NCBI GenBank assembly: GCA_964510315.1
Contig: CAZEAP010000004.1
Location: 67,092-131,091 of the forward strand
Direction: 5' to 3'
Length of the DNA stretch: 64,000 nucleotides
Source: an uncultured candidatus Brocadiaceae bacterium
GTDB lineage: Bacteria; Planctomycetota; Brocadiia; SM23-32
Shown: piece by piece, positions 23,936 to 50,230 of the stretch
Layout: every line of letters begins with the position of its first letter
Position numbering within the stretch: the first letter of the stretch is position 1
The notes under the pieces: generated by a model
Told to the model about the DNA's origin: nothing
The model's database searches: none
Seen by the model: the letters and a program-made list of their open reading frames with translations, nothing else
Position numbers and translations under genes: made by a program

Positions 23936-24901
23936 TCATCGGCGGTTCCGCCCGTCGCGGAGCCGCCGTTCGAGGCGCCCGCCGAAACGATTCTTATAGC
24001 CGACCAGTCCCGAAGATGCAATGCGCCGCGCGACGCGCGGGGCCGCAAGGCGGCTGCCGGGGTAGGCGGCGGTGGAGGCCCGGGATGGGGGCCTGAACCG
24101 CAGGTCGGGCGGATAGCCTTTGCCCTCGTCCCGGGCGAGCGAGATCGCCTCCTCCGGGCATCCGGAGACGCAGACGCCGCATCCCATGCAGCTTTCCCAG
24201 TCGACGGCGGCCGTCCCGTCGACGCGGACGGCCTCGAACGGACAGGCATCCTCGCATGCGCCGCAGCCCACGCAGAGCGCCTGGTCCACCCCGGCGACGT
24301 AGCCCGAGGAAGCCATCATCCGGGAGCCGTAGCGGACCATCGCCTCGATCCCTCCGCAGCAGCACTTGCAGCAGTTACAGATGGCATAGAAGCGGTCCAT
24401 CATGGCATCCTTGAACCACGCGCTGTGAACGTGTCCGCGCTCATGCTCCTCCGCAAGGAGCCGGAGGGCCTCCGCCTGGGACAGGCGCCGGCTCTCCCGG
24501 GGGTGATGTTCCAGCAGGAAGTCCACGAACGGCCGTCCGACGACCATGCACACCTGCGTCGGCCGGCAGGGCTCGGGGCGGGCGTGCCGGCAGCAGCACT
24601 CGTACACGGCGATGTCCGGCGGCCCCTTCAGCACGAGCTTCCGAGCCGTGGAGTACGGGATGATCTGCTCCAGGTCCCGCAGGGGGATCTCCTTCTCCAG
24701 GGTGACGATCGCCCGGCTCTGCCCGTGGGTAAGCACCTTGCCGTGGTAGCGCTCGGCCAGCCAACTTCGCCCGCGCGAGCCGAGGCGTGGCATGATCCAG
24801 TTGACCAGAAGACGGAGGTACTGCTTCGTCCATCGCCCGTAGACGTAGCCGTGCAGGGGCTTGAGACTGAAGAACCCGCGCAGCCCGATCTTGCGCATCA
24901 T
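23936..24901 (-). CDS. 4Fe-4S dicluster (ferredoxin-type) protein
   Basis: C.CR, ICNCCKCCC, CxxCxxCxxxCP twice; start at ATG 24901 inferred; C-terminus may be extended. Confidence 0.85.
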   Translation of the reverse strand: MMRKIGLRGFFSLKPLHGYVYGRWTKQYLRLLVNWIMPRLGSRGRSWLAERYHGKVLTHGQSRAIVTLEKEIPLRDLEQIIPYSTARKLVLKGPPDIAVYECCCRHARPEPCRPTQVCMVVGRPFVDFLLEHHPRESRRLSQAEALRLLAEEHERGHVHSAWFKDAMMDRFYAICNCCKCCCGGIEAMVRYGSRMMASSGYVAGVDQALCVGCGACEDACPFEAVRVDGTAAVDWESCMGCGVCVSGCPEEAISLARDEGKGYPPDLRFRPPSRASTAAYPGSRLAAPRVARRIASSGLVGYKNRFGGRLERRLRDGRNRR

Positions 24902-29131: not shown

Positions 29132-30208
29132 ATGACCGACGAACTGAGCCACAGGGAGCGGGTGAGGCTCGCGCTGGAGCACCGGGAGACGGACCGCGTG
29201 CCGATCGCCATGGTCTGCTCCGGCATCAACGCGCCGGCGCGGGCGGAGCTGGAAGGCTACCTCGACCGCGAGCGGGGCATTACGGTCGAGCAGTACCTGG
29301 CGCCGTTGATCGACATAAAGGGGGTGGGACCGGCCTATGTCGGGCCGGCGCTGCCGGAGCGGACCGATGTCTGGGGCGTCCGCCGCCAGCCGGTCAGCTA
29401 CGGGTCGGGGCACTACGAGGAGATCGAGCACTATCCCCTGGCCGACGCCGAGACGGTCGACGATATCATCGCCCACACGTGGCCGGAGCCCGACTGGTAC
29501 GACTACTGCGTGATGCCGGAGCGGATTGCGGCGGTCCAGGAGTCAGGTCCGTTCTGCCTTATGGCGCAGAACGGCAACATCTTCGAGACCTCGTGGTATA
29601 TGCGCGGTTTCGAGCGGATATTCATGGACCTGGCGCTCCGGCCGGGGCTCGCCCACGCCATCTTCGAGCGGGTCTGCGACTTTTACTGCGAGCATTTCCG
29701 GCGGCTTCTGGAGGCGGCCGAGGGCGAGATCGACCTGGTCTTCACGGCCGACGACATCGGCGGGCAGAACGGACTGCTGATGTCGTTGGACATGTGGGAG
29801 GAGAACCTCAAGCCCTACCACGCCCGGCTGAACCGCGTGATCCACGGTTTCGGCGCGAAGGTCATCTACCACTCCGACGGATGCGTTACCGACGCGGTGC
29901 CCGGGCTGATCGAGATGGGCATCGACGTGCTCCAGGCCCTGCAGTTCGACGTGAAGGGCATGGAGCCGACCGACCTGAAGGAGCGGTTCGGGGACCGGTT
30001 GTGCTTCGAAGGGGGCGTCAGCGTGCAGCACACCCTGCCGTTCGGCACGCCGGAGGAGGTGAAGCAGGAGGTGCGGGAGAGGATCGAGGTGCTTGGCGCC
30101 GGCGGGGGTTACATCTGCGGCCCCTCCCACGCCATCCAGGCCGGCACTCCGCCGGCGAACATCGTCGCACTGTTCGACACGGCGGCCCGTCACCGGCCCG
30201 GGAACTGA
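29132..30208 (+). CDS. Uroporphyrinogen decarboxylase (URO-D/MtaA) family protein
   Basis: RERV..AL.H.E.DRVP, D.WG, DDIGGQ, HSDG, GGVSVQ..LPFGTPEEV, SHAIQ. Confidence 0.9.
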   Translation: MTDELSHRERVRLALEHRETDRVPIAMVCSGINAPARAELEGYLDRERGITVEQYLAPLIDIKGVGPAYVGPALPERTDVWGVRRQPVSYGSGHYEEIEHYPLADAETVDDIIAHTWPEPDWYDYCVMPERIAAVQESGPFCLMAQNGNIFETSWYMRGFERIFMDLALRPGLAHAIFERVCDFYCEHFRRLLEAAEGEIDLVFTADDIGGQNGLLMSLDMWEENLKPYHARLNRVIHGFGAKVIYHSDGCVTDAVPGLIEMGIDVLQALQFDVKGMEPTDLKERFGDRLCFEGGVSVQHTLPFGTPEEVKQEVRERIEVLGAGGGYICGPSHAIQAGTPPANIVALFDTAARHRPGN

Positions 30209-30219
30209 GGGACCCGCCC

Positions 30220-31062
30220 TCAGCGGGCCTCCTGCTGTTCGGCGGCGGCGGAGAGGGTAATGGAATCCCCCTTCTCGCAGCCGAGCCGCTCCGCGGCCGA
30301 TCCCTTGTTGACGGCCACCTCCAGATAGCCGCTGCTGCCGATCAGGGCCACCAGCTCGCCCTCCGGACGGTCGGCGTACGCCCTGGCCAGCCCCTCCATC
30401 CGCTGGCGCTTCACCCGCACCTCGACCTTGTCGGGCGGCACGCCGAGGCTTCTGCGCATGGTGCCTTCACGCATGTTGGTGATGAGGTTGCCGAACTGGT
30501 CGATGTAGATGATCTCGCCCCGCAGGCTGCCGTCGGCCGTCCGGACCGGGTTGGGCAGTTGGAGGCGGTGCATGTGGCTGGCCGTCGGCCCCAGCTTCGA
30601 GGGCTCCAGGCCCTTCGCCAGATGAGCGGCCACCGGCGCGAAGACGTCCCGCCCGTGGAACGTGGTGCTGGTCTCCTCCAGGAAGTAATCCCGGGCCGTC
30701 ACCCTGCGGACCTCCTCCCGCCCGCCCTCGTCGGCGATCACGCTCAACAGGCCGTTGTCCGGGGCCAGGAAAACCTGGTCGTTCGTCCGCATGTAGAGCA
30801 CGGCGCGCTCGGTTCCCACCCCGGGGTCGACCACGCAGGTGAAGATGGTCTCGGGCGGGAAAAACCGGTAGGAGGCGGCCAGCACGAAGGCCGCTTCGGC
30901 GATGTCCTGGGGGACGATGTTGTGGGAGAGGTCAATGATGTCGGCGTCGTCGCAGATGCCCCGAATGACGCCTTTCATCACGCCGACGTAGCTGTCCTTG
31001 AAACCGAAGTCCGTCAGCAGCGCGATTGGTGGAGCGGTCTTGTGGAAGGTGAACCGAGCCAT
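30220..31062 (-). CDS. SAM hydroxide adenosyltransferase (DUF62; chlorinase/fluorinase superfamily)
   Basis: LLTDFG..D.YVGVMKG, VVDPGVGT.R, PDNGLL, TFHGRD.FAP, ID.FGN. Confidence 0.93.
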   Translation of the reverse strand: MARFTFHKTAPPIALLTDFGFKDSYVGVMKGVIRGICDDADIIDLSHNIVPQDIAEAAFVLAASYRFFPPETIFTCVVDPGVGTERAVLYMRTNDQVFLAPDNGLLSVIADEGGREEVRRVTARDYFLEETSTTFHGRDVFAPVAAHLAKGLEPSKLGPTASHMHRLQLPNPVRTADGSLRGEIIYIDQFGNLITNMREGTMRRSLGVPPDKVEVRVKRQRMEGLARAYADRPEGELVALIGSSGYLEVAVNKGSAAERLGCEKGDSITLSAAAEQQEAR

Positions 31063-31670
31063 AGAGCGCTCTCAAAGCCTCTCGAAGTGACCTGAACCCG
31101 CACCCCCCTGGTCTTCCGAAGGATAATTCTAATCGCGGGGGACGTCCTTTTCAAGGCGGGGGCGTCGGCGGCCCACCTCCATCCACAGCCCGCCGGCGAC
31201 GGGGGCAAGCCCCGGGCGCCCTTGCCCGCCTCCGGCGTACCCCCGGCTATATCCTTATCCTTATGCCCGTTCGGGGCGCCGCCGTCACAACGCCAAAGGC
31301 ATATTCGGCGGGGATGGACGCTAACGGCATGGGGCCATCCCGGTCCGGCTCTGACGGGTCCCTTTGCGGCCGGCCGGAGAGAAGCTCCCCAAAACCGGGG
31401 ATGACTCAAGGAGGCCCGTCACCGCTGCAAGCAAGGGCTCCCGTGCTGAACCCCCGTTGAGGCCATGGGGCTCAAAACGGACGAACCTCCGCAGACTTGA
31501 AGACACGGGAGGGACACCGATGGACACTGGTCTACACGGAGAGACGATCAACGGACCTGTGTGAATCTTCTTTCCTTCGGACCCAAACCGCCCGCCCCGC
31601 GGCGGGCAAGCCTGGTGGTCTTTACCCGATGCGCCTGCCCGTTCCCTTCATCTCCGCGCTCAGAGCTGCG

Positions 31671-32435
31671 TTACAGGCCCATGTCCCGCAGCGCCTGCAG
31701 GCTGCGCCCGGGCACCTCGAAGCCCAGACCGTCGCTGCCCCCTTCCTCCACGACGAACCACCTGGTGTTCTGGTTCCGCTCGATGACTTCGAAGACGGTT
31801 TCCCAGTCCACATCGCCGTCGCCGAGGACGCCGCCCTCGGGCTTGTTGTGGTCCTTCAGGTGGATGGAGCGGGCACGGTTCGGAAACCGCTTGAGCATCG
31901 CGATGGGATCGCCGCCGCCACCCATGCAGTTGCCGATGTCCAGCTGCATGATGACCTCCTCGCTGGTCTGGTCGAACAGCCGGACCCATGCCACTTCGCC
32001 CTCGACCTCCTCGAAGTCGAACCCGTGGGCGTGGTAGCCCACGAACATGCCCTCCTCGGCGACCTTCTCGGCGGCGTCGTTGAGGATGTCGGCCAGCTCG
32101 CGGATGGTCTCCACCGAGGACATGCGCCGGGGATCGGCGGCGATAACCAGGCAACGGTTGCCCAGGATGCGGTTGAACTCCACCGTCGTCTCCAGGTTGT
32201 CCTTCAGCGCGACGGTTGCCAGGTGGATGCCGCAGCAGACCAGGTTGGTGTCGTCGTACATCGCGCGGATATCTTCGGCGGAGTGGCCCATCCACTCCAG
32301 CGCCTCGCCGGTGTAGCCCCACGGCTCGGCGCCCACGTAGCCTGTGTCGGCAACCTTCCGGAGCGTGGCCGGCAGGTCCTGCTTCACCTCGCCGCGCACG
32401 GCGAACAACTGCAGTGCAATCGGTATGTCGTCCAT
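31671..32435 (-). CDS. Sugar phosphate isomerase/epimerase TIM-barrel protein
   Basis: LQLFAVR, YHAH, QLDIG, IHLKD, VVEE. Confidence 0.9.
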   Translation of the reverse strand: MDDIPIALQLFAVRGEVKQDLPATLRKVADTGYVGAEPWGYTGEALEWMGHSAEDIRAMYDDTNLVCCGIHLATVALKDNLETTVEFNRILGNRCLVIAADPRRMSSVETIRELADILNDAAEKVAEEGMFVGYHAHGFDFEEVEGEVAWVRLFDQTSEEVIMQLDIGNCMGGGGDPIAMLKRFPNRARSIHLKDHNKPEGGVLGDGDVDWETVFEVIERNQNTRWFVVEEGGSDGLGFEVPGRSLQALRDMGL

Positions 32436-32644
32436 CCTCGGTCCTTCCCCTCAGCCCGTAGAGCAAATGCCCCGCCGCCCCGCGCGACGGTTCGTGGGAT
32501 TTTAAGCACTGGGCGCATCCCGTCAAGGGAGGAGGGGCAACTCGCTGCCTACTTCCGGCATTCCGCCGGTAACCTTGTCTTTTGCGCGCGGGGTACGTAA
32601 CCTGAGCCTTCCTCTCCCGCGACCAGATTTGAAGGGATGTCGCC

Positions 32645-34168
32645 GTGAAAGCCAGGAACGTACTGCTCATCCACACCGACCAGCAGCGTTGGGACAGCCT
32701 CGGGTGCATGGGCAATCCCTGCGTGCGCACGCCCAACATCGACCGGCTCGCCTCCGAAAGCAGCGTCTTTACCCGGCACGTGGTCTCCAACGCCGTCTGC
32801 ATGCCTTCGCGGGCCACGCTGATGACGGGCCTGTATCCTCCGGCCCACAACGCGTGGAACAACGGCGTGCCGCTGAACCGGCGGGTGTATGCCGACACGT
32901 CCGAGCCGCCCGGCAGCCACGTGCCGCCCCCGCTTACTCCGGAGCCGCCGACCATGGCGGACGTCTTCGCGGCGGCCGGCTACGATACGGTGTCCTTCGG
33001 CAAGCTCCACCTCACGCCGTTCCTTGCGCCCGCCTCCCGGGCCTACCCGGAGTCCAGCGCCTGCTGGGCGGAAGGGTCGCTCGACGACTGGCACGGGCCC
33101 TACTACGGGTTCCGCTACGTCGATCTACTCCCGGGCCACGGGGAGGGCCTGTGCCGGCTCGGGCACTACGGGGTCTGGCTGGAACGGGAGCATCCGGAAG
33201 TGCGGGAGCGCGTGCTGGCGCACCGAAGCGAGCGTCCCCGGCCGGTCCCGCCGGTGGGCGACCTCTACGAATCGCTGCTTCCTTCGGAGCTTCACCACTC
33301 GGCGTGGCTTGGGGAGCGGTTCTGCCGATACCTCGAGCGGGAACGTCCGACCGACAGGCCCTTCTTTGCGTTCGTCGGCTTCCCCGATCCGCATCATCCT
33401 TTCACGCCGAGCGCCGACGTGCTGGAGCAGTTCCGCGACTGTCCCGTGCACGAACCCACCGATCTGGAGGGCCGGTGCCTGCGGGGCTCGCCGGCCGAGG
33501 CGAAGCTGCGCGGCGAGGGCATCTCCACACCAATGGAACAGGTGCCGGAGGAGCAGCGAAACACGATCATCCGGCATACCTACGCCATGGTCTACCAGAT
33601 CGACATGGCCGTCGGGCGGATGCTCGACGCTCTCCAACGGGCGGGGCTGCGCGAGAAAACCATCGTGATCTTCACCAGCGATCACGGGGAGTTCCTCTGC
33701 GACCACGGCTTGTTGCGCAAGGCGTTGTTCGCCTTCGACACACTCCTCCGGGTGCCCTTCGTCATACGGGCACCGGGAGCCGGGCTGCCGGCGCGGGTGG
33801 ACGCGCCGATGAGCAACGCCGACGTGCTGCCCACGCTGGCCGCCCTGACGGGCATCCAGCCGCCGGCCTACCAGCAGGGCCGCGATATTCGCCGCATCTT
33901 GCGGGAAGGCGAATCGCACCACGCCCTCAGCTTCATCGCCGACGGGGATCCGGCGCACCTCAACTACACCGTGTACGACGACCGGTATCGCCTCACCTGC
34001 TATCCCAACGCGGACTGGGTGGAGATGTTCGATCACCGGGAAGACCCCGCGGAGACGGCGAACGTCGCCGGGGAACGAGCCGCGGACCGGCGTCGGCTCC
34101 TCGGTGTACTCAGGGAAACCATGCCCGCGTGCTGGAATCCCATCCTCGCCCGGTGCGCCGCGTGGTGA
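32645..34168 (+). CDS. Formylglycine-dependent (Cys-type) sulfatase
   Basis: TDQQRWD, CMPSRATLMTG signature, GKLH, DPHHP, TSDHGE. Confidence 0.93.
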   Translation: MKARNVLLIHTDQQRWDSLGCMGNPCVRTPNIDRLASESSVFTRHVVSNAVCMPSRATLMTGLYPPAHNAWNNGVPLNRRVYADTSEPPGSHVPPPLTPEPPTMADVFAAAGYDTVSFGKLHLTPFLAPASRAYPESSACWAEGSLDDWHGPYYGFRYVDLLPGHGEGLCRLGHYGVWLEREHPEVRERVLAHRSERPRPVPPVGDLYESLLPSELHHSAWLGERFCRYLERERPTDRPFFAFVGFPDPHHPFTPSADVLEQFRDCPVHEPTDLEGRCLRGSPAEAKLRGEGISTPMEQVPEEQRNTIIRHTYAMVYQIDMAVGRMLDALQRAGLREKTIVIFTSDHGEFLCDHGLLRKALFAFDTLLRVPFVIRAPGAGLPARVDAPMSNADVLPTLAALTGIQPPAYQQGRDIRRILREGESHHALSFIADGDPAHLNYTVYDDRYRLTCYPNADWVEMFDHREDPAETANVAGERAADRRRLLGVLRETMPACWNPILARCAAW

Positions 34169-34182
34169 ACCGTGTCGGACGC

Positions 34183-34191
34183 TGCTACAAT
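34183..34191 (+). promoter_or_regulatory. Possible extended -10 promoter for glycyl radical enzyme operon
   Basis: TGCTACAAT (TGn plus TACAAT) about 100 nt before ATG 34291. Confidence 0.4.
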
Positions 34192-34290
34192 GAAGTACAC
34201 GGCCCGAGGCTTTGTAATTGGAGACCATAGCGGCCTGTTGAGAAGCCGGACCCGATCCCCGTTCCTGAGCAGGCTCCTGGAGGAGTGCGT

Positions 34291-39907: not shown

Positions 39908-39975
39908 ACGAACAGTGTACCGACGGCCTTACTGCACAGATGGGGTCCCAGGTTGGTATATGGAGAAGGGCTCAC

Positions 39976-42810
39976 ATGGCACGCGGAAAAAGAAAAGGCA
40001 AAGAGAGCTGGCCCGAGGACTACAGGCATCCGGAGGCCGACAGCCCGATGCGGCCGGAGGTGGGGACGCAGGCGCAGTTCCGGAAGAAGAAGGAGCCGCA
40101 GACGTACCGGTACGACTCCTCGCTTGCGCCGGAGATGAACTGGGACGGGCAGAATCCGGCGCGCGAGCTGGGCGAATGGCTTCTGGCCTGCGTGGAGGAG
40201 GCATCGGCCCTCGAGCCGCCTCACCGATTCCCGGAGCCGCGCACTTTCCGGTCGTCGGACGGCGGGATCGTCGAGAGCGTGGACGGGCTGCACGAGGCCG
40301 TCGCCAAGCTCAAGGCCCTGGGTGAGCCCTTCCTGAACTGGGCGGGCAAGGCGGAACGGCTTTCCTTCGACGTGCCGACGCTGCCCCTGTTCGTGCACGA
40401 GCGGCTGAGTACCCACGCCATTATTGAGACACTCAAGGGCCATCGGAAAGACGAGGGCGCGCAGCAGTTGGAGCTCTTCGCTGACCCGCAGCACCCCGTC
40501 TCAGACCAGGTGCTGAAAGCCTACGAGTATCGGGACGACTGGGTGAACCGTCTGATCCTCGGCGACAGCCTGGTCGTGATGAACTCCCTGCTCCACTACG
40601 AGGGGATGGGCGGCCAGGTGCAGATGATCTACATGGACCCGCCCTACGGGGTGAAGTTCGGCAGCAACTTTCAGCCCTTCGTGCGCAGCCGGGACGTGAA
40701 GCACAACGATGACGATTCGCTGACCCGCGAACCGGAGATGGTCCAGGCCTACCGTGACACCTGGGAACTGGGGCTGCACTCCTATCTGTCATACATGCGT
40801 GACCGTCTGCTCCTTTGCCGCGAACTGCTGCACCCGTCGGGCAGTGTGTTCGTCCAGATCGGGGACGAGAACGTGCAGCATGTTCGCGAGGTCTTGGATG
40901 AAGTCTTTGGACCCGACAACTTTTGCTCGCTGATAGCATTCGTGAAGACAGGTGGTTTCAGCCCTACTTTGCTTCCAAACGTTGCGGATTATCTCCTCTG
41001 GTATGCGAAGGACAAAGAACGTGTGACATACCGGCAGCTTCATCAGAGGAAGGACCCGGGCGAAGAGGGAGCCACTCAGTACACGTATGTCGAAGACCCT
41101 GACACCGGTGAAGTGCGCTCAATGACCCAAGAAGAGAGGCAAAACCCAAGCGTGGTCGCATCGACCCATCGGGTTCTCTGCCACGACAACCTGACTGGTC
41201 AGGGGGCATCGGGGAACACGGACCCGTTCGAATGGGAGGGAAAGGTCTTCGAACTGCCTGCCAATAGCCATTGGAAGACGACGACCGAGGGACTGCAGCG
41301 TTTGGCCGAAGAAAACCGGTTGATAGCTATGGGTGACACCCTTCGGTACAAGCGGTATCTCGATGACTTCCCCGTATATCCAATTTCGAACGTATGGACG
41401 GACACGGCGATCAGCGGTTTCGCGGAGAAGAAGACCTACGTCGTCCAGACGAACCCGTCCGTTGTCGAGAGATGTATGCTCATGACAACGGACCCAGGCG
41501 ACCTCGTGCTCGATCCCACCTGTGGAAGTGGCACGACGGCCTATGTTGCTGAGGAGTGGGGCCGGCGCTGGATTACAACTGACGTCAGCCGGGTGCCCCT
41601 GGCGCTGGCGCGGCAGCGGCTACTGACGGCGACTTTGCCCTGGTACCGGCTTCAGGAAGAAGCACGCGGTCCAGCTGGAGGCTTTATCTACGAGCAGAAG
41701 CAAGACGACATCGGGCGCGAGATAGGAGGGATTGTCCCTCACAAGACGCTCAAGGCCATCGCCAATGCCGAGGAACCGGACTACGAGGTGCTTGTTGACA
41801 AGCCTGAGCGAGACAGTGGCGTCACGCGAGTTAGCGGGCCCTTCGTTGTAGAAGCGACGATTCCCACACCTGTCGACTGGGACGCCGACGGCGAGGAGGA
41901 CTCCGGTGTGAATATGGCGGAGCGAGGGGCGTTCCTCGACAGAATGCTCGAGGTGTTGCGGAAGAGCCCCGTCCTCCACCTGGAGGGTAACCGGGCGGTG
42001 ACGCTCAAGAACGTGCGTCTGCCGGCCAAGTCGCTTTCGCTCTCCGCCGAGGCAATGGTCAGCCCGAAGGACCTGGGGCCTCCGGAGACGCTGGAGGACA
42101 TGAAGGAGCAGGCACTGGACGATGCCGGCGGACGGCTGCCGTTCAACGATCAACCGGTGGCCATCGTGTTCGGCCCCGAGAACGGCGCCGTCAGCGAGAA
42201 GCTCGTCTTCGAAGCGGCCCGCGAGGCCCACGTCAAGGACTACGCCCACCTGTTCGTGATCGGGTTCGCCATCCAGCCGAACGCCCGCAAGCTGGTCGAG
42301 GACTGCGCAGAGGCCGTCGGCGTTCCCGCCAGCTACGTGCAGATGACGCCCGACCTGGTGATGGGCGACCTGCTGAAGAACATGCGCTCGAGCGAGATCT
42401 TCAGCGTCTGCGGCCTGCCGGAAGTCGAGGTGCGCGCGGCCGGCGACGGCAAGTACGAGGCCGAGCTACTGGGCATGGATACGTTCGATCCGGCCACGAT
42501 GAAGACCGAGCACCGGGACGGCGACGACGTGCCGGCGTGGTTCCTGGACACCGACTACAACGGCCTCTGCTTCCACGTCTGCCAGGCATTCTTCCCGCGC
42601 ACGCGGGCCTGGGACAGCATCAAGAAGGCGCTGAAGGGCACGCACGATCCCGAGGTCTGGGACCACCTGGCCGGCACGAGGAGCGCACCCTTTGAGGCCG
42701 GAGAGCACGGCCAGATCGCCGTGAAGGTCATCGACGACCGCGGGAACGAGCTGTTGGTGGTCAAAGATCTGGAGGATGCGCGCACCGAAGGAGAGAAGGA
42801 TGGAGCGTGA
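39976..42810 (+). CDS. mod: Type III R-M methyltransferase (Mod), beta-class amino-MTase with long C-terminal extension
   Basis: IYMDPPYG (motif IV) before DPTCGSGTT (motif I); upstream of Res helicase. Confidence 0.9.
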   Translation: MARGKRKGKESWPEDYRHPEADSPMRPEVGTQAQFRKKKEPQTYRYDSSLAPEMNWDGQNPARELGEWLLACVEEASALEPPHRFPEPRTFRSSDGGIVESVDGLHEAVAKLKALGEPFLNWAGKAERLSFDVPTLPLFVHERLSTHAIIETLKGHRKDEGAQQLELFADPQHPVSDQVLKAYEYRDDWVNRLILGDSLVVMNSLLHYEGMGGQVQMIYMDPPYGVKFGSNFQPFVRSRDVKHNDDDSLTREPEMVQAYRDTWELGLHSYLSYMRDRLLLCRELLHPSGSVFVQIGDENVQHVREVLDEVFGPDNFCSLIAFVKTGGFSPTLLPNVADYLLWYAKDKERVTYRQLHQRKDPGEEGATQYTYVEDPDTGEVRSMTQEERQNPSVVASTHRVLCHDNLTGQGASGNTDPFEWEGKVFELPANSHWKTTTEGLQRLAEENRLIAMGDTLRYKRYLDDFPVYPISNVWTDTAISGFAEKKTYVVQTNPSVVERCMLMTTDPGDLVLDPTCGSGTTAYVAEEWGRRWITTDVSRVPLALARQRLLTATLPWYRLQEEARGPAGGFIYEQKQDDIGREIGGIVPHKTLKAIANAEEPDYEVLVDKPERDSGVTRVSGPFVVEATIPTPVDWDADGEEDSGVNMAERGAFLDRMLEVLRKSPVLHLEGNRAVTLKNVRLPAKSLSLSAEAMVSPKDLGPPETLEDMKEQALDDAGGRLPFNDQPVAIVFGPENGAVSEKLVFEAAREAHVKDYAHLFVIGFAIQPNARKLVEDCAEAVGVPASYVQMTPDLVMGDLLKNMRSSEIFSVCGLPEVEVRAAGDGKYEAELLGMDTFDPATMKTEHRDGDDVPAWFLDTDYNGLCFHVCQAFFPRTRAWDSIKKALKGTHDPEVWDHLAGTRSAPFEAGEHGQIAVKVIDDRGNELLVVKDLEDARTEGEKDGA

Positions 42811-43114
42811 GGAACTGCGAACCGAGCTGAAGCGCCGCCTGGAGGATGCCTTCGGGGACCGACTGCAAGGCGTGGTGCTGTACGGTTCCGAGGCGCGGGG
42901 AGAGCCCCGGCAGGACAGCGACATCGACGTGATGGTGTTGCTGGAGGGGCCTATCAACCTGTGGGAAGACCTCAAGACGGGCATCGAGGCCACCTATGAC
43001 CTGACGTTGGAGTTGGGGCGGCCTGTGCATCCGGACCCGGTGGACGCGGCGGAATACGAAAAAGGGGAGTTTGCGCTTTATCGCAACGTGAAACGGGAAG
43101 GAATCGTGCTGTGA
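42800..43114 (+). CDS. Minimal nucleotidyltransferase (MNT) antitoxin
   Basis: LYGSEARGE...DSDIDVMV; overlaps mod stop and HEPN start. Confidence 0.92.
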   Translation: MEREELRTELKRRLEDAFGDRLQGVVLYGSEARGEPRQDSDIDVMVLLEGPINLWEDLKTGIEATYDLTLELGRPVHPDPVDAAEYEKGEFALYRNVKREGIVL

Positions 43115-43509
43115 GCCATGAGTCACAGGATCTGTGGGCGCGTGCGGTGGAGGCATTAGGCGTTGCGCAGAGGGAGGCAGCGCTGAGCCCGGACGCCTCG
43201 GCGTCGCGTGCTTACTACGCGGCCTTCCATGCCGTATCCGCCCTCTTTGCCACGAGAGGCGAGAGCTTCAGGCGACACTCGGCAGTGGAAGCGGCCGTGC
43301 ATCGCGACCTGGTGCGCACGGGGGATTTGAGCAAGGAGTTGGGCGCGGCCTACAGCGCGTTGCTGAGGTTGCGCGAGGTGGGAGATTACGGCGGGGCACG
43401 CCACGTGAGGGCCGACCAAGCACGCGAGGCGGTGGGCGATGCCCGGAAGATTCTTGCGGCGGTCAGTGAGCTGAAACCGGATGAGTTCCACATGCCGGAA
43501 AAGGAGTGA
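43111..43509 (+). CDS. HEPN domain protein (toxin partner of MNT)
   Basis: SRAYYAAFHA, RRHSAV, LREVGDY. Confidence 0.9.
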   Translation: MSHESQDLWARAVEALGVAQREAALSPDASASRAYYAAFHAVSALFATRGESFRRHSAVEAAVHRDLVRTGDLSKELGAAYSALLRLREVGDYGGARHVRADQAREAVGDARKILAAVSELKPDEFHMPEKE

Positions 43510-43513
43510 AGGC

Positions 43514-46500
43514 ATGGCCGACTTCGAGGTGCCGGAACCGATCCTGAATACCCCTTACGAGGAGCCGCAGCAGTACTGGTTCATCCGTGAGGGCGAGTCG
43601 CCGGAGCAGCGCGAGGGCAGACGGCCTTCGGTGGTCTATCCGCCGAGTGACACGCCGGTGAAGTGGAGCATCGAGCCGGAGATTCTGCAGCGCTCCGAGG
43701 ACTTCGCTCCCGGTTACGAGATGGTGCTTGTCAACCTGGTCCGGGAGCGGCGCAAGCAATGGCGGGCCGACGGGTGTCCTGGAGTGACGCGAGTCAGCAA
43801 GGAACTGATGGAGTGGTGGCACCGGGCCGGCCGGAAGACGCCGCTCTGGTTCGCGCAGCTCGAGGCGGCCGAGACGGTCATCTTCCTCACCGAAGCCCGG
43901 CAGGATTACCTGCAAGGCATCGACGTTCCGCTGGACGAGCCCAACCCGAGCCAGAAAGAGGAAGGCATCAAGGCTTTCCTTCGGTATGCCCTGAAGATGG
44001 CAACCGGCGCGGGCAAGACGACGGTGATGGGGATGCTGGCGGCCTGGAGCATCTTGAACAAGGTGAACAACCGGTCGGATGCTCGGTTCTCCGACGTGGT
44101 CCTGATCGTCTGCCCCAACATCACGATCAAGAACCGGCTGCAGGAACTGGACCCCGAACAGGGCGACGCCAGCCTGTACCGCACGCGCGACCTCGTGCCG
44201 CCGCACCTGATGCCCCAGCTCAGCCAGGGCAAGGTCATCGTAACGAACTGGCACCTGTTCCAGTTGCAGGACCCCAGCGCCGGCGACCCCGCCAAAGTGA
44301 AGAAGATCGGCGTCAAGGTAGAGAAGCTGGACACCGTCTACATCCGTGACCGAACAGACACCTATCGCGGCTATCGCTACCTCACGTTGGAGGACTACGA
44401 GCAGCAGGTGGCGACGGGGATGCTGACGGTGCGGGAGGAGTATCGCGACAGCAGCGGCAACCTGGAGAAAGCCGACGTCGTGACCACGAAGTACGTGGAG
44501 AGCGACACCGCGTGGGACCGGCGCGTGCTGGGCCAGGAGATCGGCGGCAAGCAGAACATCCTGGTGATGAACGACGAGGCCCATCACGCCTACCGTATCC
44601 GGCGCGGGGAGGAGGAAGAGGAGACCGAGGAAGAGACCTTCGGGGAGGAGAGCGAGGCCGAGGAGTTCTTCACCGAAGCGACGGTATGGGTGGAGGGCCT
44701 GGACCGCGTCCACAAGATGCGGGGCATCAACTTCTGCGTGGACCTGTCGGCGACGCCTTACTACCTGGGCCGTGTGGGCCAGGAGACGAACAAGCCTTTC
44801 CCGTGGGTCGTGAGCGACTTCGGGCTCACTGACGCCATCGAGTCGGGGCTCGTGAAGATACCGCAGCTCGCGCTGCAGGACCCGAGCGGCGAGGAGCGGG
44901 CGGCTTACTTCAACCTCTGGAAGTGGATTCTGGACCAGCTCACGTCTCGCGAGAAGGGCGGCACGAAGGGCAGTCCGAAGCCGGAGGCGGTGCTGAAGTA
45001 CGCCCACCATCCGATTGCGATGCTCGGCGGTCAGTGGGAGGAGACGCGGCAGGTATGGAAGCGCAACGAGGACGACGACCGCCCGCCGGTCTTCATCATC
45101 GTGTGCAAGAACACGAAGATCGCCGAGGTGATCTACCAGTGGCTGGCCAACGGCGAAGCGCCCGAGGGGATTCCGACGTCCGGGATCGACGCGCTGCGCA
45201 ACACGGACGGCCGCGAAAACACGGTCCGGATCGACTCGAAGGTGGTGCACGAGACGGATAGCGACCACGCGAAGAGCGACCTGGACGCCTGGATGCGGCT
45301 GACGCTGGACACGGTGGGCAAGGAGCAGTGGCCGACTGACTCGCAACGCAGGCCCATCTACCCGGAGGGATTCGAGGAGTTGGCGAACAAGCTGGGCAAG
45401 CCACTACATCCGCCGGGACGGGATGTCCGTTGCATCGTGAGCGTCGGCATGCTCACGGAGGGATGGGACTGCAACACGGTGACGCACATCGTGGGGTTGC
45501 GGCCCTTCATGTCACAGCTTTTGTGCGAACAGGTTGTCGGCCGCGGCCTGCGGCGCACGAGTTATGAGGTGGCCGAGAACGGGAAGCTCACCGAAGAGGT
45601 GGCGCAGATCCTGGGTGTGCCGTTCGAGGTCGTGCCCTACAAGGCCGCGCCGGAGGGGCAGCCCGCGCAGGTCAAGGAGCGGAAGCATGTGCACGCGCTG
45701 CCCGAGAAGGCCAGGTACGAGATCACGTTCCCGCGCGTGGACGGCTATACGCAGGCTATCCGGAACCGGGTTACTGTGGACTGGGATGCGTTGCCGCGGC
45801 TTCGGCTCGACCCGGCCCAGATCCCGCCGGAAGTGCGGATGAAGGCGACCGTGCCGAGCAACGAGGGCCGGCCATCTCTGTTCGGCCCTGGCGGCGAAGT
45901 CCAGATTGACCTCAATCCGTACCGCGAGGGGCGCCGAATGCAGGAGCTTGCGTTCGAAATGGCTGCGGCGATGACGAAGGAACTGGCGAACAACCCCAGG
46001 TGCAACGTGCCGACGCACGTGCTGTTCCCCCAGACGCTGGGCATCGTGCAGCGGTACTTGGCAGAGAAGGTCGATCCCGTGCCGCCCGCCGAGAGAATTG
46101 ATGTTGCCCTCTCGCCGTACTACGGGTGGGCTGTGGAGCGGCTGCGCGACGCGATCCGCGCGGACACGGGAGCCGGCGAGCCGCCGGAGGTGCCCCGTTA
46201 CGAGCAGCACCGCGGCCCGGGCTCAACGGACGAGGTGGACTTCTGGACCAGCCGGGAGGTCTGGACGCCGCAAAGGAGCCACGTCAACTACGTGGTCGCC
46301 GACACGCGGCGCTGGGAGCAGTCGGCCGCCTACCACATCGACAAGCACGATGCGGTGGATGCCTACGTCAAGAACGCGGGTCTGGGATTCGCCATCCCCT
46401 ACGTGCACAACGGCGAGCCGCATGACTACGTGCCCGACTTCATCATCCGGCTGAAGACGGATGGCGACGAGGAGCGCTACCTGATCCTGGAGACCAAGGG

Positions 46501-46666
46501 GTTCGACGAGTTGGAGGGCGTGAAGCGCGAGGCGGCCAAGCGATGGGTAGAAGCCGTCAATGCGGATGGTGCCTTTGGTCACTGGGACTACGCGACCGCT
46601 CACAGCCCTGGTGTCGTGATAAGTCTTCTTGACGAAGCAGTCAGAGCGGGCCTCGACGCGGGCTGA
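43514..46666 (+). CDS. res: Type III R-M restriction subunit (SF2 ATPase plus PD-(D/E)xK nuclease)
   Basis: MATGAGKT, NDEAHH, LSATP, VGMLTEGWD, QVVGRGLR, YVPDF...LETKG. Confidence 0.92.
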   Translation: MADFEVPEPILNTPYEEPQQYWFIREGESPEQREGRRPSVVYPPSDTPVKWSIEPEILQRSEDFAPGYEMVLVNLVRERRKQWRADGCPGVTRVSKELMEWWHRAGRKTPLWFAQLEAAETVIFLTEARQDYLQGIDVPLDEPNPSQKEEGIKAFLRYALKMATGAGKTTVMGMLAAWSILNKVNNRSDARFSDVVLIVCPNITIKNRLQELDPEQGDASLYRTRDLVPPHLMPQLSQGKVIVTNWHLFQLQDPSAGDPAKVKKIGVKVEKLDTVYIRDRTDTYRGYRYLTLEDYEQQVATGMLTVREEYRDSSGNLEKADVVTTKYVESDTAWDRRVLGQEIGGKQNILVMNDEAHHAYRIRRGEEEEETEEETFGEESEAEEFFTEATVWVEGLDRVHKMRGINFCVDLSATPYYLGRVGQETNKPFPWVVSDFGLTDAIESGLVKIPQLALQDPSGEERAAYFNLWKWILDQLTSREKGGTKGSPKPEAVLKYAHHPIAMLGGQWEETRQVWKRNEDDDRPPVFIIVCKNTKIAEVIYQWLANGEAPEGIPTSGIDALRNTDGRENTVRIDSKVVHETDSDHAKSDLDAWMRLTLDTVGKEQWPTDSQRRPIYPEGFEELANKLGKPLHPPGRDVRCIVSVGMLTEGWDCNTVTHIVGLRPFMSQLLCEQVVGRGLRRTSYEVAENGKLTEEVAQILGVPFEVVPYKAAPEGQPAQVKERKHVHALPEKARYEITFPRVDGYTQAIRNRVTVDWDALPRLRLDPAQIPPEVRMKATVPSNEGRPSLFGPGGEVQIDLNPYREGRRMQELAFEMAAAMTKELANNPRCNVPTHVLFPQTLGIVQRYLAEKVDPVPPAERIDVALSPYYGWAVERLRDAIRADTGAGEPPEVPRYEQHRGPGSTDEVDFWTSREVWTPQRSHVNYVVADTRRWEQSAAYHIDKHDAVDAYVKNAGLGFAIPYVHNGEPHDYVPDFIIRLKTDGDEERYLILETKGFDELEGVKREAAKRWVEAVNADGAFGHWDYATAHSPGVVISLLDEAVRAGLDAG

Positions 46667-46989
46667 GGCCGAAGTCCCCCATCGTAGCACCCTTTCAGTG
46701 TGCCCCTTGCTTCCCTCACGAGTTCCTTCTTTCGCGATTTCTTCGCTTCCTCCTCGCCGAATGGTCGCTTTCGGCCACCGTGGCGCGGATTTTTCGGTTC
46801 TCAGAGGGCTTCTGGTGGGGCCAGAGACCGGCGAGAGGAATCGGTTGCCCCTGTAGTGCCCAACCCGGACACGCCCCGGGCGCCGAACGGCTACAATAGC
46901 CGCGCTCAACGGTCCTGCTAACCGCGGAGGACGCAGAGTTACGCAGAGTTAACGACGGAGGGACAACGAACGACGAACAGGATTCCCCC

Positions 46990-47058
46990 AACGGCTGGAC
47001 AACCCGGCAACACAACATCCGGGAACCCTGTGCTGCCTACTGACTACTGACTACTGAC
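46990..47058 (+). repeat. 69-bp direct repeat, copy 1
   Basis: AACGGCTG(G/A)ACAACCCGGCAACACAACATCCGGGAACCCTGTGCTGC(CTACTGA)3C; one mismatch to 48455-48523. Confidence 0.97.
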
Positions 47059-47064
47059 CCTCAC

Positions 47065-47356
47065 AAAAATGATCGGCAAAAGCAGGGCGCCCTGAAAGGG
47101 CGCGACATATTCGTTCAAGACATGTCGCCATGTACCGGACGAGGCCCGGCTGCCCGGCGTATGTCTCGCCCCTACAGGGCTCAACTATTTGGGGGTGGAC
47201 CTGTACCCCCAGGGCTATGCCCTGGGCTGTGTATGTCACGCCCCTGCGGGGCTGCGATGTGTGATATACCGCGTTGCCCGGGTCGCTCTGGACGCTGAAC
47301 ACGTACGGCCAGGATGGCCCGGCACTGACTACTGTCTACTGACTACTGTCTACTGA
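47065..47356 (+). repeat. REP/REPIN-like hairpin cassette, copy 1, ending in 5 heptamers
   Basis: GCGCCCTGAAAGGGCGC, GCCCCTACAGGGC, CCCAGGGCTATGCCCTGGG, GCCCCTGCGGGGC; about 260 bp near-identical to 48645-48906. Confidence 0.93.
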
Positions 47357-47393
47357 CGTACCCGTTTACCGTGGACGCTTTGGGAGCGGTCCA

Positions 47394-47690
47394 CTGCCCG
47401 GCATCCGGCCACTGGGCTCTGTAAGAGCCCGACATACCAGCCCAGGGCGGAGCCCTGGGAAAAATGATCGGCACAAAAAGCCAGGGCGCCCTGAAAGGGC
47501 GCGACATATTCGTTCAGAAAGACATCTCGCCGTGTACCTGCCCGGCGTATGTCTCGCCCCTACAGGGCTCAACTATTTGGGGGTGGACCTGTACCCCCAG
47601 GGCTATGCCCTGGGCTGTGTATGTAACGCCCCTGCGGGGCTTCCATGTGTGATATCCCGCGCACTCCGAGCAGGGATGCTCGCGCTACAG
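47394..47690 (+). repeat. REP/REPIN-like cassette, copy 2, with both inverted arms
   Basis: 66-bp module 47394-47459 (GGGCTCTGTAAGAGCCC, CCCAGGGCGGAGCCCTGGG) identical to 48579-48644, followed by the shared cassette from 47460. Confidence 0.93.
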
Positions 47691-47696
47691 GGCCGG

Positions 47697-47850
47697 CTAC
47701 TGACTACTGACCACTGACCACTGACTACTGGCCACTGGCCACTGTCTACTGTCTACTGACCACTGACCACTGGCCACTGGCCACTGTCTACTGACTACTC
47801 TCTACTGACTACTGTCTACTGACCACTGTCTACTGACTACTCTCTACTGG
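47697..47850 (+). repeat. Heptamer tandem array, 22 units of C(T/C)ACT(G/C)(A/T/G)
   Basis: Counted unit by unit; ends 9 nt before ATG 47860. Confidence 0.98.
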
Positions 47851-47859
47851 AGTAAAGCC

Positions 47860-48390
47860 ATGAACGGAGGCAAGCCGAGGGTTTCGCGACGTCAGCTCGT
47901 CGCCAACCGACGTAACGCAACAAAGGGCGGTCCCAAAACGCCGGAGGGCAAAAAGAAGTCCAGCCGCAACGCGCGTAAACACGGCATCTTCGTCGAAGCC
48001 CTCACCAACGACGACCGGGAGGAGCTGAGCGACCTCCACGAGCGGTTCGCCGAGGACCTCCAGCCGACCGGTTCCGTCGAGGAGACCCTGGTGGAGAAGC
48101 TGGCGGTCTGCTACCTGCGGCTCCAGCGCTGCGCCCGGGCGGAGGCCGAATACCACCACGCCACGTGGACGCCCGTCCCCCCGAAAAAGCGCCGCAGGTG
48201 CCTGAACCCCGGCAGCTACTTCAAGTCCGGCCCCTTCAGCCGGATCGTCAAGCTGGTGCAGCGATACGACACCTCGATCACCAACCAGTTCCTGAGGGTG
48301 CTCCACGAGCTGGAGCGGCTGCAGCGGATCCGCCGCGGCGACAACGTCTCGCCCCCGGTGACGGCCGACGTGCACGTGACCGGTTCGTGA
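47860..48390 (+). CDS. Hypothetical protein of the 'ANR.NA..GP.T.EGK..S..NA.KHG' type
   Basis: 176-aa ORF with GGAG RBS and coding-like codon use; N-terminal motif recalled from uncharacterised proteins of planctomycetes/acidobacteria. Confidence 0.85.
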   Translation: MNGGKPRVSRRQLVANRRNATKGGPKTPEGKKKSSRNARKHGIFVEALTNDDREELSDLHERFAEDLQPTGSVEETLVEKLAVCYLRLQRCARAEAEYHHATWTPVPPKKRRRCLNPGSYFKSGPFSRIVKLVQRYDTSITNQFLRVLHELERLQRIRRGDNVSPPVTADVHVTGS

Positions 48391-48454
48391 GTCGTCAACG
48401 GGGGTCACCACGAAGAGCACGAAGGGACACGAAGAACGAAGGAGGAGGAGGACG

Positions 48455-48523
48455 AACGGCTGAACAACCCGGCAACACAACATCCGGGAACCCTGTGCTG
48501 CCTACTGACTACTGACTACTGAC
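48455..48523 (+). repeat. 69-bp direct repeat, copy 2
   Basis: Matches 46990-47058 with one mismatch. Confidence 0.97.
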
Positions 48524-48578
48524 TACCGTCTTTCGTTCAGGTTGACAGACATGTCGGCATGTACCGGACGAGTCCCGG

Positions 48579-48902
48579 CTGCCCGGCATCCGGCCACTGG
48601 GCTCTGTAAGAGCCCGACATACCAGCCCAGGGCGGAGCCCTGGGAAAAATGATCGGCAAAAGCAGGGCGCCCTGAAAGGGCGCGACATGTTCGTTCAAGA
48701 CATGTCGCCATGTACCGGACGAGTCCCGGCTGCCCGGCGTATGTCTCGCCCCTACAGGGCTCAACTATTTGGGGGGTGGACCCGGGTCCCCAGGGCTACG
48801 CCCTGGGCTGTGTATGTAACGCCCCTGCGGGGCTGCGATGTGTGATATACCGCGTTGCCCGGGTCGCTCTGGACGCTGAAAACGTACGACCAGGATGCCC
48901 CG
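48579..48902 (+). repeat. REP/REPIN-like cassette, copy 3
   Basis: 66-bp module plus about 260-bp cassette matching copies at 47394 and 47065. Confidence 0.93.
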
Positions 48903-49056
48903 GCACTGTCTACTGTCTACTGACTACTCTCTACTGACTACTGTCTACTGACCACTGTCTACTGACTACTGTCTACTGACTACTGGCCACTGGCCACTGT
49001 CTACTGCCTACTGGCCACTGGCCACTGACTACTGACTACTCTCTACTGACTACTGA
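48903..49056 (+). repeat. Heptamer tandem array, 22 units
   Basis: Counted unit by unit (first unit GCACTGT); same unit family and orientation as 47697-47850. Confidence 0.98.
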
Positions 49057-49489
49057 TTGCTGACCCCCGGTTACGAAACGAACCCATTTTCCCGCAGGGC
49101 ATACGCGGGGAAGCACTTACGACACAAAATCCAAATCGGCGTACGGAGCCGGATGTATACGCGAAACCACAGAAAGGACACTTTTGGCTTGCCGCGTCCG
49201 GACGGCCGGGCGGCGGCCATGGCCTCCCGGCAGGACCTTCAGCCGCGGGAGATCGACGTCCGGCGGCTGCAGGAGCATCTGGTAGAGATCGGGAACCTGC
49301 CGGCCGCCGTATCCTCTCCGAATACCGGTGCGACCTGCGCGGCCTGTTCGCGCGTCACGCCGAGTGGGTTCTGGGCCAGAGGACGGAAGAAGGCTGATGC
49401 GGTTGCCCGGCAGGGCCGCTGCTATTACACTGCGAGGCCGGATCCGCGCAAATCAATAATTGACCGAGCAGGTCACGGAAGGAGAGAGG

Positions 49490-50230
49490 ATGGGAATCGG
49501 ATACCAGGACACGCCGCTGATTCCGGGGACGAACTGGCACGTGCACGACGGCGAGCGGCCCCAGCCGCCCGTAGCCAGCCCCACAAACCTTGGCGAGATC
49601 GGCCCGGTCCTGCCCCCGGGGGATGCGGTGGTGCTGTTCGACGGCTCGGACCTGGAGCAGTGGGAGTCGGCCAAAGACGGCGGAGCGGCGGAGTGGGAGA
49701 TCATTGGAGACGCCATGCGGGTCGTCCCCGGCACGGGGGGCATCCGCACCAGGCGCAAGTTCGGCGACATACAGTTGCACGCGGAATGGGCCGCGCCGGC
49801 CGAGGTGAAGGGCGAGAGCCAGGGCCGCGGGAACTCCGGCGTCTTCCTGATGGAGCGTTACGAGATACAGGTGCTGGACTGCTACGAGAACCCCACTTAT
49901 CCCGACGGCACCACCGGCGCCGTTTACGGGCAGTATCCGCCGCTGGTCAACGCGTGCGTCCCGCCGGGGAAGTGGAACACCTACGACATCCTCTGGGAGG
50001 CGCCGGTCTTCGAGGGCGAGGAGGTGGCGAAGCCCGCCTTCGTTACCGTCCTTCAGAACGGCGTTCTGCTGCACAACCACGTCAGGCTCATGGGGCCGAC
50101 CGGCCACAAGATCGTCCCCGAATACACCCCGCACGAACCCGAGGGAAGCATCTCCCTGCAGGACCATGGGGACCTGGTGAGCTTCCGCAACATCTGGGTC
50201 CGCGAACTCAAAGGCTACGACCAGGGCTAA
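49490..50230 (+). CDS. DUF1080 (3-keto-disaccharide hydrolase-like) protein
   Basis: LFDGSDL..W, FGD.QLH.EW, GNSGVFL..RYE.QVLD, W..YDI, LQDHG..V.FRNIW; GGAG RBS. Confidence 0.93.
   Translation: MGIGYQDTPLIPGTNWHVHDGERPQPPVASPTNLGEIGPVLPPGDAVVLFDGSDLEQWESAKDGGAAEWEIIGDAMRVVPGTGGIRTRRKFGDIQLHAEWAAPAEVKGESQGRGNSGVFLMERYEIQVLDCYENPTYPDGTTGAVYGQYPPLVNACVPPGKWNTYDILWEAPVFEGEEVAKPAFVTVLQNGVLLHNHVRLMGPTGHKIVPEYTPHEPEGSISLQDHGDLVSFRNIWVRELKGYDQG

Follow-up and report, generated by a model that had tools for sequence, protein, structure and literature searches.

Heptamer repeat arrays joined to Acido-Lenti-1-like hairpin modules in an uncultured planctomycete

Tandem repeats with a period of seven nucleotides (nt) have long been known from cyanobacteria, where the unit of the short tandemly repeated repetitive (STRR) sequences reads CCCCAGT in STRR1 and CAACAGT in STRR3. 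Here we describe five related arrays from an uncultured Brocadiaceae bacterium. They lie in a 64,000-nt stretch of contig CAZEAP010000004.1 (positions 67,092 to 131,091, forward strand), hereafter the window, and the two longest, arrays 1 and 2, lie on either side of a gene for a hypothetical protein that we call ORF176. These arrays extend the long-known STRR/TAACTGA-type class to an uncultured high-GC planctomycete. They share with cyanobacterial STRRs the tandem 7-nt units, the intergenic location, a copy number that varies from array to array and, on one strand, an ACTG/CAGT core, but differ in their high-GC planctomycete host, in the mixing of five unit variants within an array and in the hairpin modules attached to them. 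A first-pass annotation of this DNA had already likened the repeats to STRRs and, from the equal size of the two long arrays, had suggested a constraint on length. We consider it probable, if far from settled, that the arrays are instead hypermutable simple sequence repeat (SSR) tracts shaped by slippage and unequal exchange, the length of which is neither measured nor constrained, and that the agreement at 22 units is coincidental.

Heptamer repeats of this kind have been described before without an agreed function (PMC4679880; PMC4692102). The TAACTGA repeats of marine Beggiatoaceae, cyanobacteria and Bacteroidetes occur in 2-43 copies, mostly just 5' of start codons (MacGregor 2015, PMC4679880). 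In the BOGUAY genome they comprise 2-6 copies of a single unit type, and a canonical Shine-Dalgarno sequence is usually absent (PMC4679880). TAACTGA is ACTGATA in another phase, so its core is common to the arrays described here, and array 1 is likewise start-codon-proximal; it differs in having 22 units of mixed type, the last of which creates a GGAG. Heptamers near recF and recO of Nostoc modulate reporter expression by an unresolved mechanism (bioRxiv 10.1101/2022.06.06.494920), and binders have been proposed by the authors both for TAACTGA (PMC4679880) and for the Nostoc heptamers (bioRxiv 10.1101/2022.06.06.494920). The GGGNATC repeats of Xanthomonas and Nostoc contain 2-26 units and avoid divergent gaps (PMC4692102), and heptanucleotides are the commonest class among long SSRs of bacteria, as the work of Mrazek (2007) is summarised in PMC4679880. 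With these the ACTG arrays share the heptamer period, a broad copy range, enrichment in non-coding DNA and under-representation between divergent genes. However, GGGNATC repeats form G-quadruplexes and prefer four units, whereas ACTG arrays have no G-runs. Phase-variable contingency SSRs are exemplified by the AGAT repeats in the 5' untranslated region (UTR) of uspA2, cited in PMC4679880, and by a 5'-UTR SSR of H. influenzae (PMC12721329). The likeness is that a repeat stands between promoter and start codon, where copy number could tune expression; the host here, however, is not a host-adapted pathogen.

Tandem Repeats Finder (TRF) detected five period-7 arrays in the window, all on the + strand, all within 47033-49064 and confined to one 2.2-kb locus. 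Neither TRF nor a regular-expression (regex) search found further arrays of the ACTG-core unit elsewhere in the 64 kb. The two 154-nt arrays and three short ones that the first pass had reported were re-found by both methods. With TRF scores of 152-217 the repeats far exceed chance expectation; the period-7 scores are 45-166 for the arrays of 3.7-22.9 copies. All five are non-coding and fall between res (end 46666), ORF176 (47860-48390) and a DUF1080-type gene (49490-50230). In order along the + strand they are as follows.

47033-47058, + strand: short array at the end of module A1; TRF 3.7 copies, 3 units at 47038-47058
47324-47357, + strand: short array at the end of module B1; TRF 4.9 copies, 5 units at 47323-47357
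47697-47849, + strand: array 1 as delimited by TRF; 21.9 copies, 82% matches
47697-47850, + strand: array 1 by regex in the phase of the first pass; exactly 22.0 units, 154 nt
47848-47851, + strand: putative Shine-Dalgarno sequence GGAG, made by the last unit of array 1, 8 nt 5' of the ATG
47860-48390, + strand: ORF176, conserved hypothetical protein of 176 amino acids (aa) with a basic N-terminus
48498-48526, + strand: short array at the end of module A2; TRF 4.1 copies, 3-4 units at 48503-48526
48905-49064, + strand: array 2 as delimited by TRF; 22.9 copies, 81% matches
48903-49056, + strand: array 2 by regex in the phase of the first pass; exactly 22.0 units, 154 nt, with a degenerate 23rd unit to 49064

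The consensus unit of the arrays is ACTGNCY. ACTG is present in 40 of the 44 units of the two long arrays, and the remaining four read ACTCTCT. Variation is limited to positions 4, 5 and 7; A, C and T at positions 1-3 and C6 are essentially invariant. The invariant ACT core with variable flanks of the first pass was confirmed, the core reading ACT(G). With one letter for each unit variant, the order in array 1 is A B B A G G T T B B G G T A X A T B T A X, then ACTGGAG, and that in array 2 is T T A X A T B T A T A G G T C G G A A X A, then ACTGATT and GCTGACC. Array 1 closes with a degenerate unit, CTACTGG, which contributes to the putative GGAG ribosome-binding site; the degenerate 23rd unit of array 2 is TTGCTGA. 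On re-checking, units 14-20 of array 1 were indeed identical to units 3-9 of array 2, and units 5-7 to units 12-14. The longest exact string common to the arrays is 59 nt (47783-47841 = 48912-48970), at different offsets. In both long arrays period 14 scores above period 7 in TRF, and array 1 shows a 42-nt higher-order period (3.5 copies, 87% identity). The 7-nt period places TGA in all three + frames of every array, as had been claimed, and TAG occurs in all three - frames of both long arrays. No ATG, GTG or TTG was found on the + strand of any of the five.

Each array is the 3' end, on the + strand, of a larger repeated non-coding module. The locus is laid out as [A-B1-C-B2-array1] ORF176 [A-b-C-B3-array2], a segmental duplication that places the module set to either side of ORF176. 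The parts other than the arrays proper are listed here.

46925-46989, + strand: purine-rich short repeats (ACGCAGAGTT twice, ACGAAC-type) 5' of module A1; TRF 46931-46951, period 10; counterpart at 48391-48454
46990-47058, + strand: module A1, a 48-nt hairpin-containing body and then the 3-unit array at 47038-47058; 99% identical to 48455-48523
47059-47322, + strand: module B1, a composite of TATGTC plus hairpin; Acido-Lenti-1-like match at 47208-47253
47087-47103, - strand: terminator-like hairpin GCGCCCTTTCAGGGCGC with T-rich tail at the left end of the B module; copies at 47486-47502 and 48667-48683
47323-47357, + strand: 5-unit array closing module B1; junction CCAGGATGSCCCGGC followed by ACTG, the same as at array 2
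47394-47476, + strand: module C1, with an Acido-Lenti-1-like motif on the - strand at 47415-47459 (Rfam 22.8 bits); 99% identical to 48579-48661
47460-47696, + strand: module B2, of B type with a 14-nt deletion and the last ~50 nt divergent; Acido-Lenti-1-like match at 47596-47641
48391-48454, + strand: purine-rich short repeats (CACGAAGRG three times) straight after the ORF176 stop; TRF 48409-48435
48455-48526, + strand: module A2, closed by the 3-4-unit array at 48503-48526
48547-48661, + strand: partial B fragment at 48547-48587, then module C2 at 48579-48661; Acido-Lenti-1-like motif at 48600-48644 on the - strand
48641-48902, + strand: module B3; Acido-Lenti-1-like match at 48789-48834, 34.2 bits
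49065-49094, + strand: conserved 3' motif CCCCGGTTACGAAACGAACCCATTTT, which accompanies ORF176 homologues

The first pass had treated 22 and 22 as a sign that length is constrained. The equality is exact in the phase used there but depends on where the boundaries are drawn: array 2 continues into its degenerate 23rd unit, and the last unit of array 1 is itself degenerate. The TRF copy numbers are 21.9 and 22.9. The constraint itself is not supported. Module by module, the arrays comprise 3 and 3 units for the A type and 5, 22 and 22 units for B1, B2 and B3. B1 is about 93% identical to B3 and has the same junction, yet it ends in 5 units rather than 22, while B2, the carrier of the other 22-unit array, has a junction unlike that of B3. 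Lengths elsewhere are broad. A scan of 185,579 species-representative genomes for four consecutive ACTGNCY units returned at least 120 loci (L001-L120), and the copy number of at least 196 ACTG/CAGT-core arrays in the 120 loci listed ranged from 3 to 38, with a median of 5.5 and no mode at 22. For two random arrays drawn from the 33 ACTG-core arrays of 10 or more copies in other genomes at these loci, the probability of the same rounded copy number was 0.087. Together with the 14- and 42-nt periods and the blocks common to both arrays, which are a signature of slippage and unequal exchange and so argue against a measured length, 22 against 22 looks like a coincidence. The tempting idea of a measured length is removed as unsupported.

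The hairpins of the modules resemble a second described element. Ten copies of TATGTC followed by a GC-rich hairpin occur at the locus on both strands and build the B and C modules. Five of these, taken with an upstream hairpin, match the Rfam family Acido-Lenti-1 (RF01687) end to end at 22.8-34.2 bits (+ strand: 30.9, 33.1 and 34.2; - strand: 22.8). All 46 model positions are aligned and both stems pair, so that the 8-bp and 5-bp hairpins of RF01687 are present together with the conserved CUG..UAUGU linker. No module match reached the RF01687 gathering score of 37 bits, and no Rfam family reached its gathering score anywhere in the window. The Acido-Lenti-1 RNA motif was described by Weinberg in 2010 with no function assigned, and was noted near group II introns in Lentisphaerae (PMC2864571). 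As in that family, the B and C modules carry a two-hairpin motif with a CUGUGUAUGU linker and are multi-copy in intergenic DNA; the Lentisphaera seeds also stand in tandem, in units of about 200 nt with a 5' UAUGCC plus hairpin. The motifs here differ in scoring below gathering, in occurring in Planctomycetota and in lying on both strands, and the published motif has no heptamer tail. At this locus heptamer repeats are physically joined to Acido-Lenti-1-like modules, a second orphan motif. The heptamers and the hairpin motif are nevertheless independent repeat classes, since no Acido-Lenti-1 match was found in 18 acidobacterial heptamer loci.

Related modules were sought in other genomes. A module-B 18-mer recovered only distant relatives in genome contigs, and a 23-mer had no match in metagenome contigs. 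Module relatives in a Kiritimatiellia metagenome-assembled genome (MAG) and a Gemmatales MAG score 30.1-35.1 bits on Acido-Lenti-1, and in the former the hairpin motifs end in another repeat, ATCTGCG three times over. A further comparison is offered by the repetitive extragenic palindromes (REPs) and bacterial interspersed mosaic elements (BIMEs) of proteobacteria, which are intergenic clusters of short GC-rich palindromes in both orientations, with conserved stem-adjacent sequence, a cognate RAYT (a Y1 transposase) and hundreds of dispersed copies. The locus resembles them in its palindrome clusters in both orientations with a conserved short sequence beside the stem. However, REPs carry no heptamer arrays, and none of the window open reading frames (ORFs) scanned had a transposase Pfam match. 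Terminator-like sites number six against 1.8 expected, all on the - strand. The three paralogous terminator-like hairpins among the listed features hint at possible transcription of the modules from the - strand, which for three of the Acido-Lenti-1-like matches would be opposite to the orientation of the Rfam model.

We propose the following account of the locus. STRR-like ACTGNCY arrays sit in a 2.2-kb repeat-rich intergenic island, each closing a module of type A or B, and were probably co-duplicated with the Acido-Lenti-1-like modules in which they are embedded. Slipped-strand mispairing would let them grow, shrink and swap blocks, as would gene conversion or unequal recombination between paralogous arrays. 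Array 1 would serve as the 5' leader of ORF176, its last unit supplying the GGAG. A change in copy number would then alter the length of the leader and the distance to the promoter, with at most a rheostat effect. Array 1 stops 9 nt short of the ORF176 ATG on the same strand and fits the start-codon pattern of BOGUAY; array 2 falls outside it. No sigma-70-like promoter was found between array 1 and the ATG. Array 1 may be transcribed, and its copy number may tune expression. It may best be described as a stop-rich, start-free leader, weakly folded for this GC-rich genome, that was probably formed incidentally.

Several points weigh against this account. Slippage and the hypervariability of the two long arrays are deduced from their structure. 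Hypervariability in particular we can only infer, because the nearest trigger factor in the database is just 65% identical and in the protein search the ORF176 cluster consists of one member on one contig. The invariance of ACT and C6, recurring across phyla, points to a constraint on sequence that pure slippage would not explain, which keeps models of protein binding and of active generation alive at low probability. Finally, the locus of the closest ORF176 relative (L134) has an ACTG array after the gene on the same strand, and arrays may be retained rather than accidental.

The protein encoded between the arrays bears on these models. On sequence grounds ORF176 is a real gene, with 427 homologues at E<1e-3 and identities of 30-63% among the 120 best listed. 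Twelve ORF176 loci in GTDB genomes all belong to Brocadiaceae, Brocadiia or Planctomycetota. The family shows a conserved N-terminal motif, ANRRNAxKxGPKTxEGKxxSxxNAxKHGI. The AlphaFold (AF2) model is all-helical with a long helical hairpin and no strand (pLDDT 85). ORF176 had no match in Pfam, NCBIfam, PADLOC or PDB sequences, its model found nothing below E = 0.98 in a Foldseek search of the PDB, and PHROGs gave only matches at E = 0.08 to small terminase. No relatives were found in viral contigs, plasmids or phages. Ribbon-helix-helix proteins of the omega/ParR type, which have an N-terminal beta-strand followed by two helices, bind heptad operators or centromeres. Such a partner was considered and dropped for ORF176, which is all-helical, lacks a strand and has no Pfam or Foldseek match.

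ORF176 homologues occur in non-syntenic contexts, between long non-coding gaps rich in short tandem repeats. In 10 of 14 ORF176 loci the stop is followed, at a distance of 9-681 nt and on the same strand, by a conserved motif (T/C)GC(G/A)AAACGAACCCAT. The usual distance is 9-41 nt; it is 681 nt in the window, where the motif stands directly past array 2, and 514 nt in L136. In both of these the gap between stop and motif is filled with repeat modules, different ones in each. This suggests a short spacer into which the modules and array 2 were inserted or within which they expanded. Read on the - strand, the 3' motif would begin a mini-ORF, MGSF(C/R)... In L134, the closest ORF176 relative (64% aa identity), the stop is followed on the same strand by purine-rich 10-mers and six ACTG heptamers, and the order after the ORF176 stop in the window matches it, with purine-rich repeats and then ACTG heptamers. 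Two orthologous loci with flanks 92-96% identical (L139 3812-3943 and L140 3836-4046) hold unrelated repeats 3' of the ORF176 homologue, namely CGAACGT plus GCATTCG heptamers in one and CGTCCT plus GAGGAC hexamers in the other. Short tandem repeats beside an ORF176 homologue have thus turned over rapidly, which is a further argument against a meaningful equality of array length. No repeat variation was seen among L129, L130 and L131, which represent one locus in three assemblies.

Against this background, the arrays could be multivalent binding tracts for a DNA- or RNA-binding protein (ORF176, an S1/Csp-type protein or a nucleoid protein), which would form a size-dependent filament or act as a sponge. 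The fixed ACT and C6 beside variable positions 4, 5 and 7, the recurrence of the ACTG core across phyla, the basic N-terminus and long helical hairpin of ORF176, the short direct repeats that regularly flank its homologues and the binders proposed earlier for TAACTGA and the Nostoc heptamers are all consistent with this idea. We nevertheless regard it as unlikely. ACTG heptamers of at least three units stand near only 2 of 14 ORF176 loci, and ORF176 was rejected as a specific partner of these arrays; it also has no recognisable DNA-binding fold or family. Moreover, a paralogous module has 5 units against 22, and the arrays show no strand bias relative to genes.

Somewhat more doubtful is the proposal that the arrays are selected sense-strand RNA elements, array 1 serving as an unstructured standby leader and as an insulator or barrier to translation, and array 2 as a C-rich, G-poor Rho-loading or 3'-UTR tract. 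The first pass had likewise raised a spacer or translation barrier, and array 1 could act as one. It would account for the TGA stops in three + frames, the lack of start codons and the Shine-Dalgarno sequence drawn from the last unit of array 1. The long arrays have 34-36% C and 16% G on the + strand, and their minimum free energy of -33 to -36 kcal/mol compares with -61.7 +/- 10 for random 154-nt genome windows. Other arrays also abut start codons, as the BOGUAY repeats do. In a Planctomycetaceae MAG (L005, 5716-5927), a 27-30-unit ACTGCCG/ACTGACC array abuts the ATG of the adenine phosphoribosyltransferase gene apt, with no Shine-Dalgarno sequence; a second array there, of 17-19 units and 1 kb off, adjoins a gene of the 23S-rRNA-IVP family. 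However, shuffled versions of the arrays fold less well than the arrays themselves (z = -4.5 to -6.8), owing to TGGCCA palindromes, which weakens the idea of an unstructured RNA. Stops in all three frames were rejected as a class-defining property because ACTGCCC arrays are stop-free on both strands. Among the matches listed, arrays in co-directional gaps are sense in 35 cases and antisense in 31; this near-even orientation to genes argues against a general sense-strand RNA function.

The wider survey outweighs the two arrays themselves. The matches listed fall in Acidobacteriota, Planctomycetota, Chloroflexota, Verrucomicrobiota, Bacteroidota, Cyanobacteria, Latescibacterota and others, so that the ACTG core recurs in at least eight phyla among them; the arrays there are mostly intergenic (24 of 169 lie inside long ORFs). 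One fifth of these listed arrays (33/165) have an inverted two-unit partner within 80 nt. It stands 5' of the ACTG strand in all 33 and 3' in none, with 4 in the control. By gap, such hairpin-type arrays are co-directional in 19 cases, convergent in 7 and divergent in 0, against a background of 219:83:110, again among the matches listed. What matters here is this strict arm polarity, the avoidance of divergent promoters and the presence of the core in at least eight phyla. No inverted partner was found for the window arrays.

A second repeat of similar design was seen alongside. It is a triple, ATCTGCGnnn ATCTGCGnnn ATCTGCGGTT (L145-L264; also L121, L123, L125, L128/L136, L130, L139 and L140), often preceded at 15-40 nt by an inverted triple AACCGCAGAT..., which gives a long interrupted palindrome; an inverted partner accompanies 43 of 145 copies. 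It occurs in Verrucomicrobiota, Planctomycetota, Acidobacteriota, Cyanobacteria, Chloroflexota, Spirochaetes and Patescibacteria, and also in archaea (Methanoperedens, Methanosarcinales). Sister units ATCCGTG, ATTCGCG, CTTGGCG and CATCGGCG follow the same grammar with the GGTT ending. About 140 chance matches are expected for the bare 17-nt ATCTGCG pattern; judged by triple or inverted context, most of the matches are genuine. No Rfam family covers the ATCTGCG palindromes, and a literature search by the sequences ATCTGCGGTT and AACCGCAGAT returned primer matches only. CTGCGGTT is presumably equal to the 3' strand of 16S rRNA helix 45.

The ACTG arrays and the GGTT-terminated triples (ATCTGCG, ATCCGTG, ATTCGCG and similar) could conceivably form one cross-phylum class of intergenic cis-elements with a fixed grammar, although we think this doubtful. 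In this grammar a purine- or G-rich arm would precede a C-rich one, no element would stand between divergent genes, and even genomes 95% identical would differ by wholesale replacement of the elements. The elements may be generated or maintained by an active process, such as a mobile element or a template-slipping enzyme, or else through recognition by a conserved factor, and the 22-unit arrays of the window may be run-away expansions of the C-rich arm. If one factor or one generating mechanism lies behind the recurrent core, the arm polarity and the avoidance of divergent promoters, the purpose of STRRs, a question now 35 years old, would become directly testable. The by-products of this work (arm polarity, divergent-gap avoidance, the ATCTGCG triples and the ORF176 family with its 3' motif) may deserve a look of their own.

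It is less likely still that the equal lengths of 154 nt are an assembly artefact, with longer true arrays collapsed to a similar size. This length is close to common read and k-mer sizes, and blocks common to both arrays could mislead an assembly graph. Long ACTG arrays also often stand at the very ends of MAG contigs (L024, L038, L114, L115, L116), which implies that short-read assemblies break on them and that published lengths are likely underestimates. However, long k-mers are unique because of the variant order in each array, k141 MAGs contain assembled arrays of 189-265 nt, the 135-kb contig has no Ns at the locus, and the same collapsed length is not expected for two arrays of differing internal structure.

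The least probable alternative, and a very unlikely one, is that the modules are non-autonomous mobile elements resembling short interspersed (SINE) or miniature inverted-repeat transposable (MITE) elements, with repeat tails added by a template-slipping polymerase or reverse transcriptase: every module is closed by a variable array (3, 5, 22, 3 and 22 units), the Kiritimatiellia hairpin motifs end in ATCTGCG triples instead, the modules appear inserted between ORF176 and the 3' motif, the orthologous sites L139 and L140 hold unrelated repeats and Acido-Lenti-1 has been noted near group II introns in Lentisphaerae, but all window copies are in one locus, heptamer arrays elsewhere occur without the hairpin motif and reading of the module junctions, with no formal search run, revealed no obvious target-site duplications. 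The template-slipping enzyme suggested in the first pass also has no direct support, as no reverse transcriptase, transposase or integrase family was matched by the window ORFs scanned against Pfam. We know of no bacterial precedent for modules with tails added by such an enzyme.

The window is otherwise ordinary chromosome, with pgk, clpP, tig, a PFL-like gene, pheA, tpiA, gmk and dut. It contains many long ORFs without a Pfam match and with high GC content at third codon positions (GC3) at 1697-9876, 15795-23999 and 29479-34230, which is typical of poorly sampled Planctomycetota. For several Pfam-less ORFs in these regions GC3 is unusually low (0.49-0.60), and these ORFs may be spurious. Just upstream of the repeat locus is a Type III restriction-modification system at 39940-46666 (mod 39940-42810, res 43481-46666). 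Phase variation of this system by the arrays was considered and rejected, the arrays lying outside mod and res. A toxin-antitoxin-like pair, MNT (42776-43114) and HEPN (43111-43509), is inserted between mod and res.

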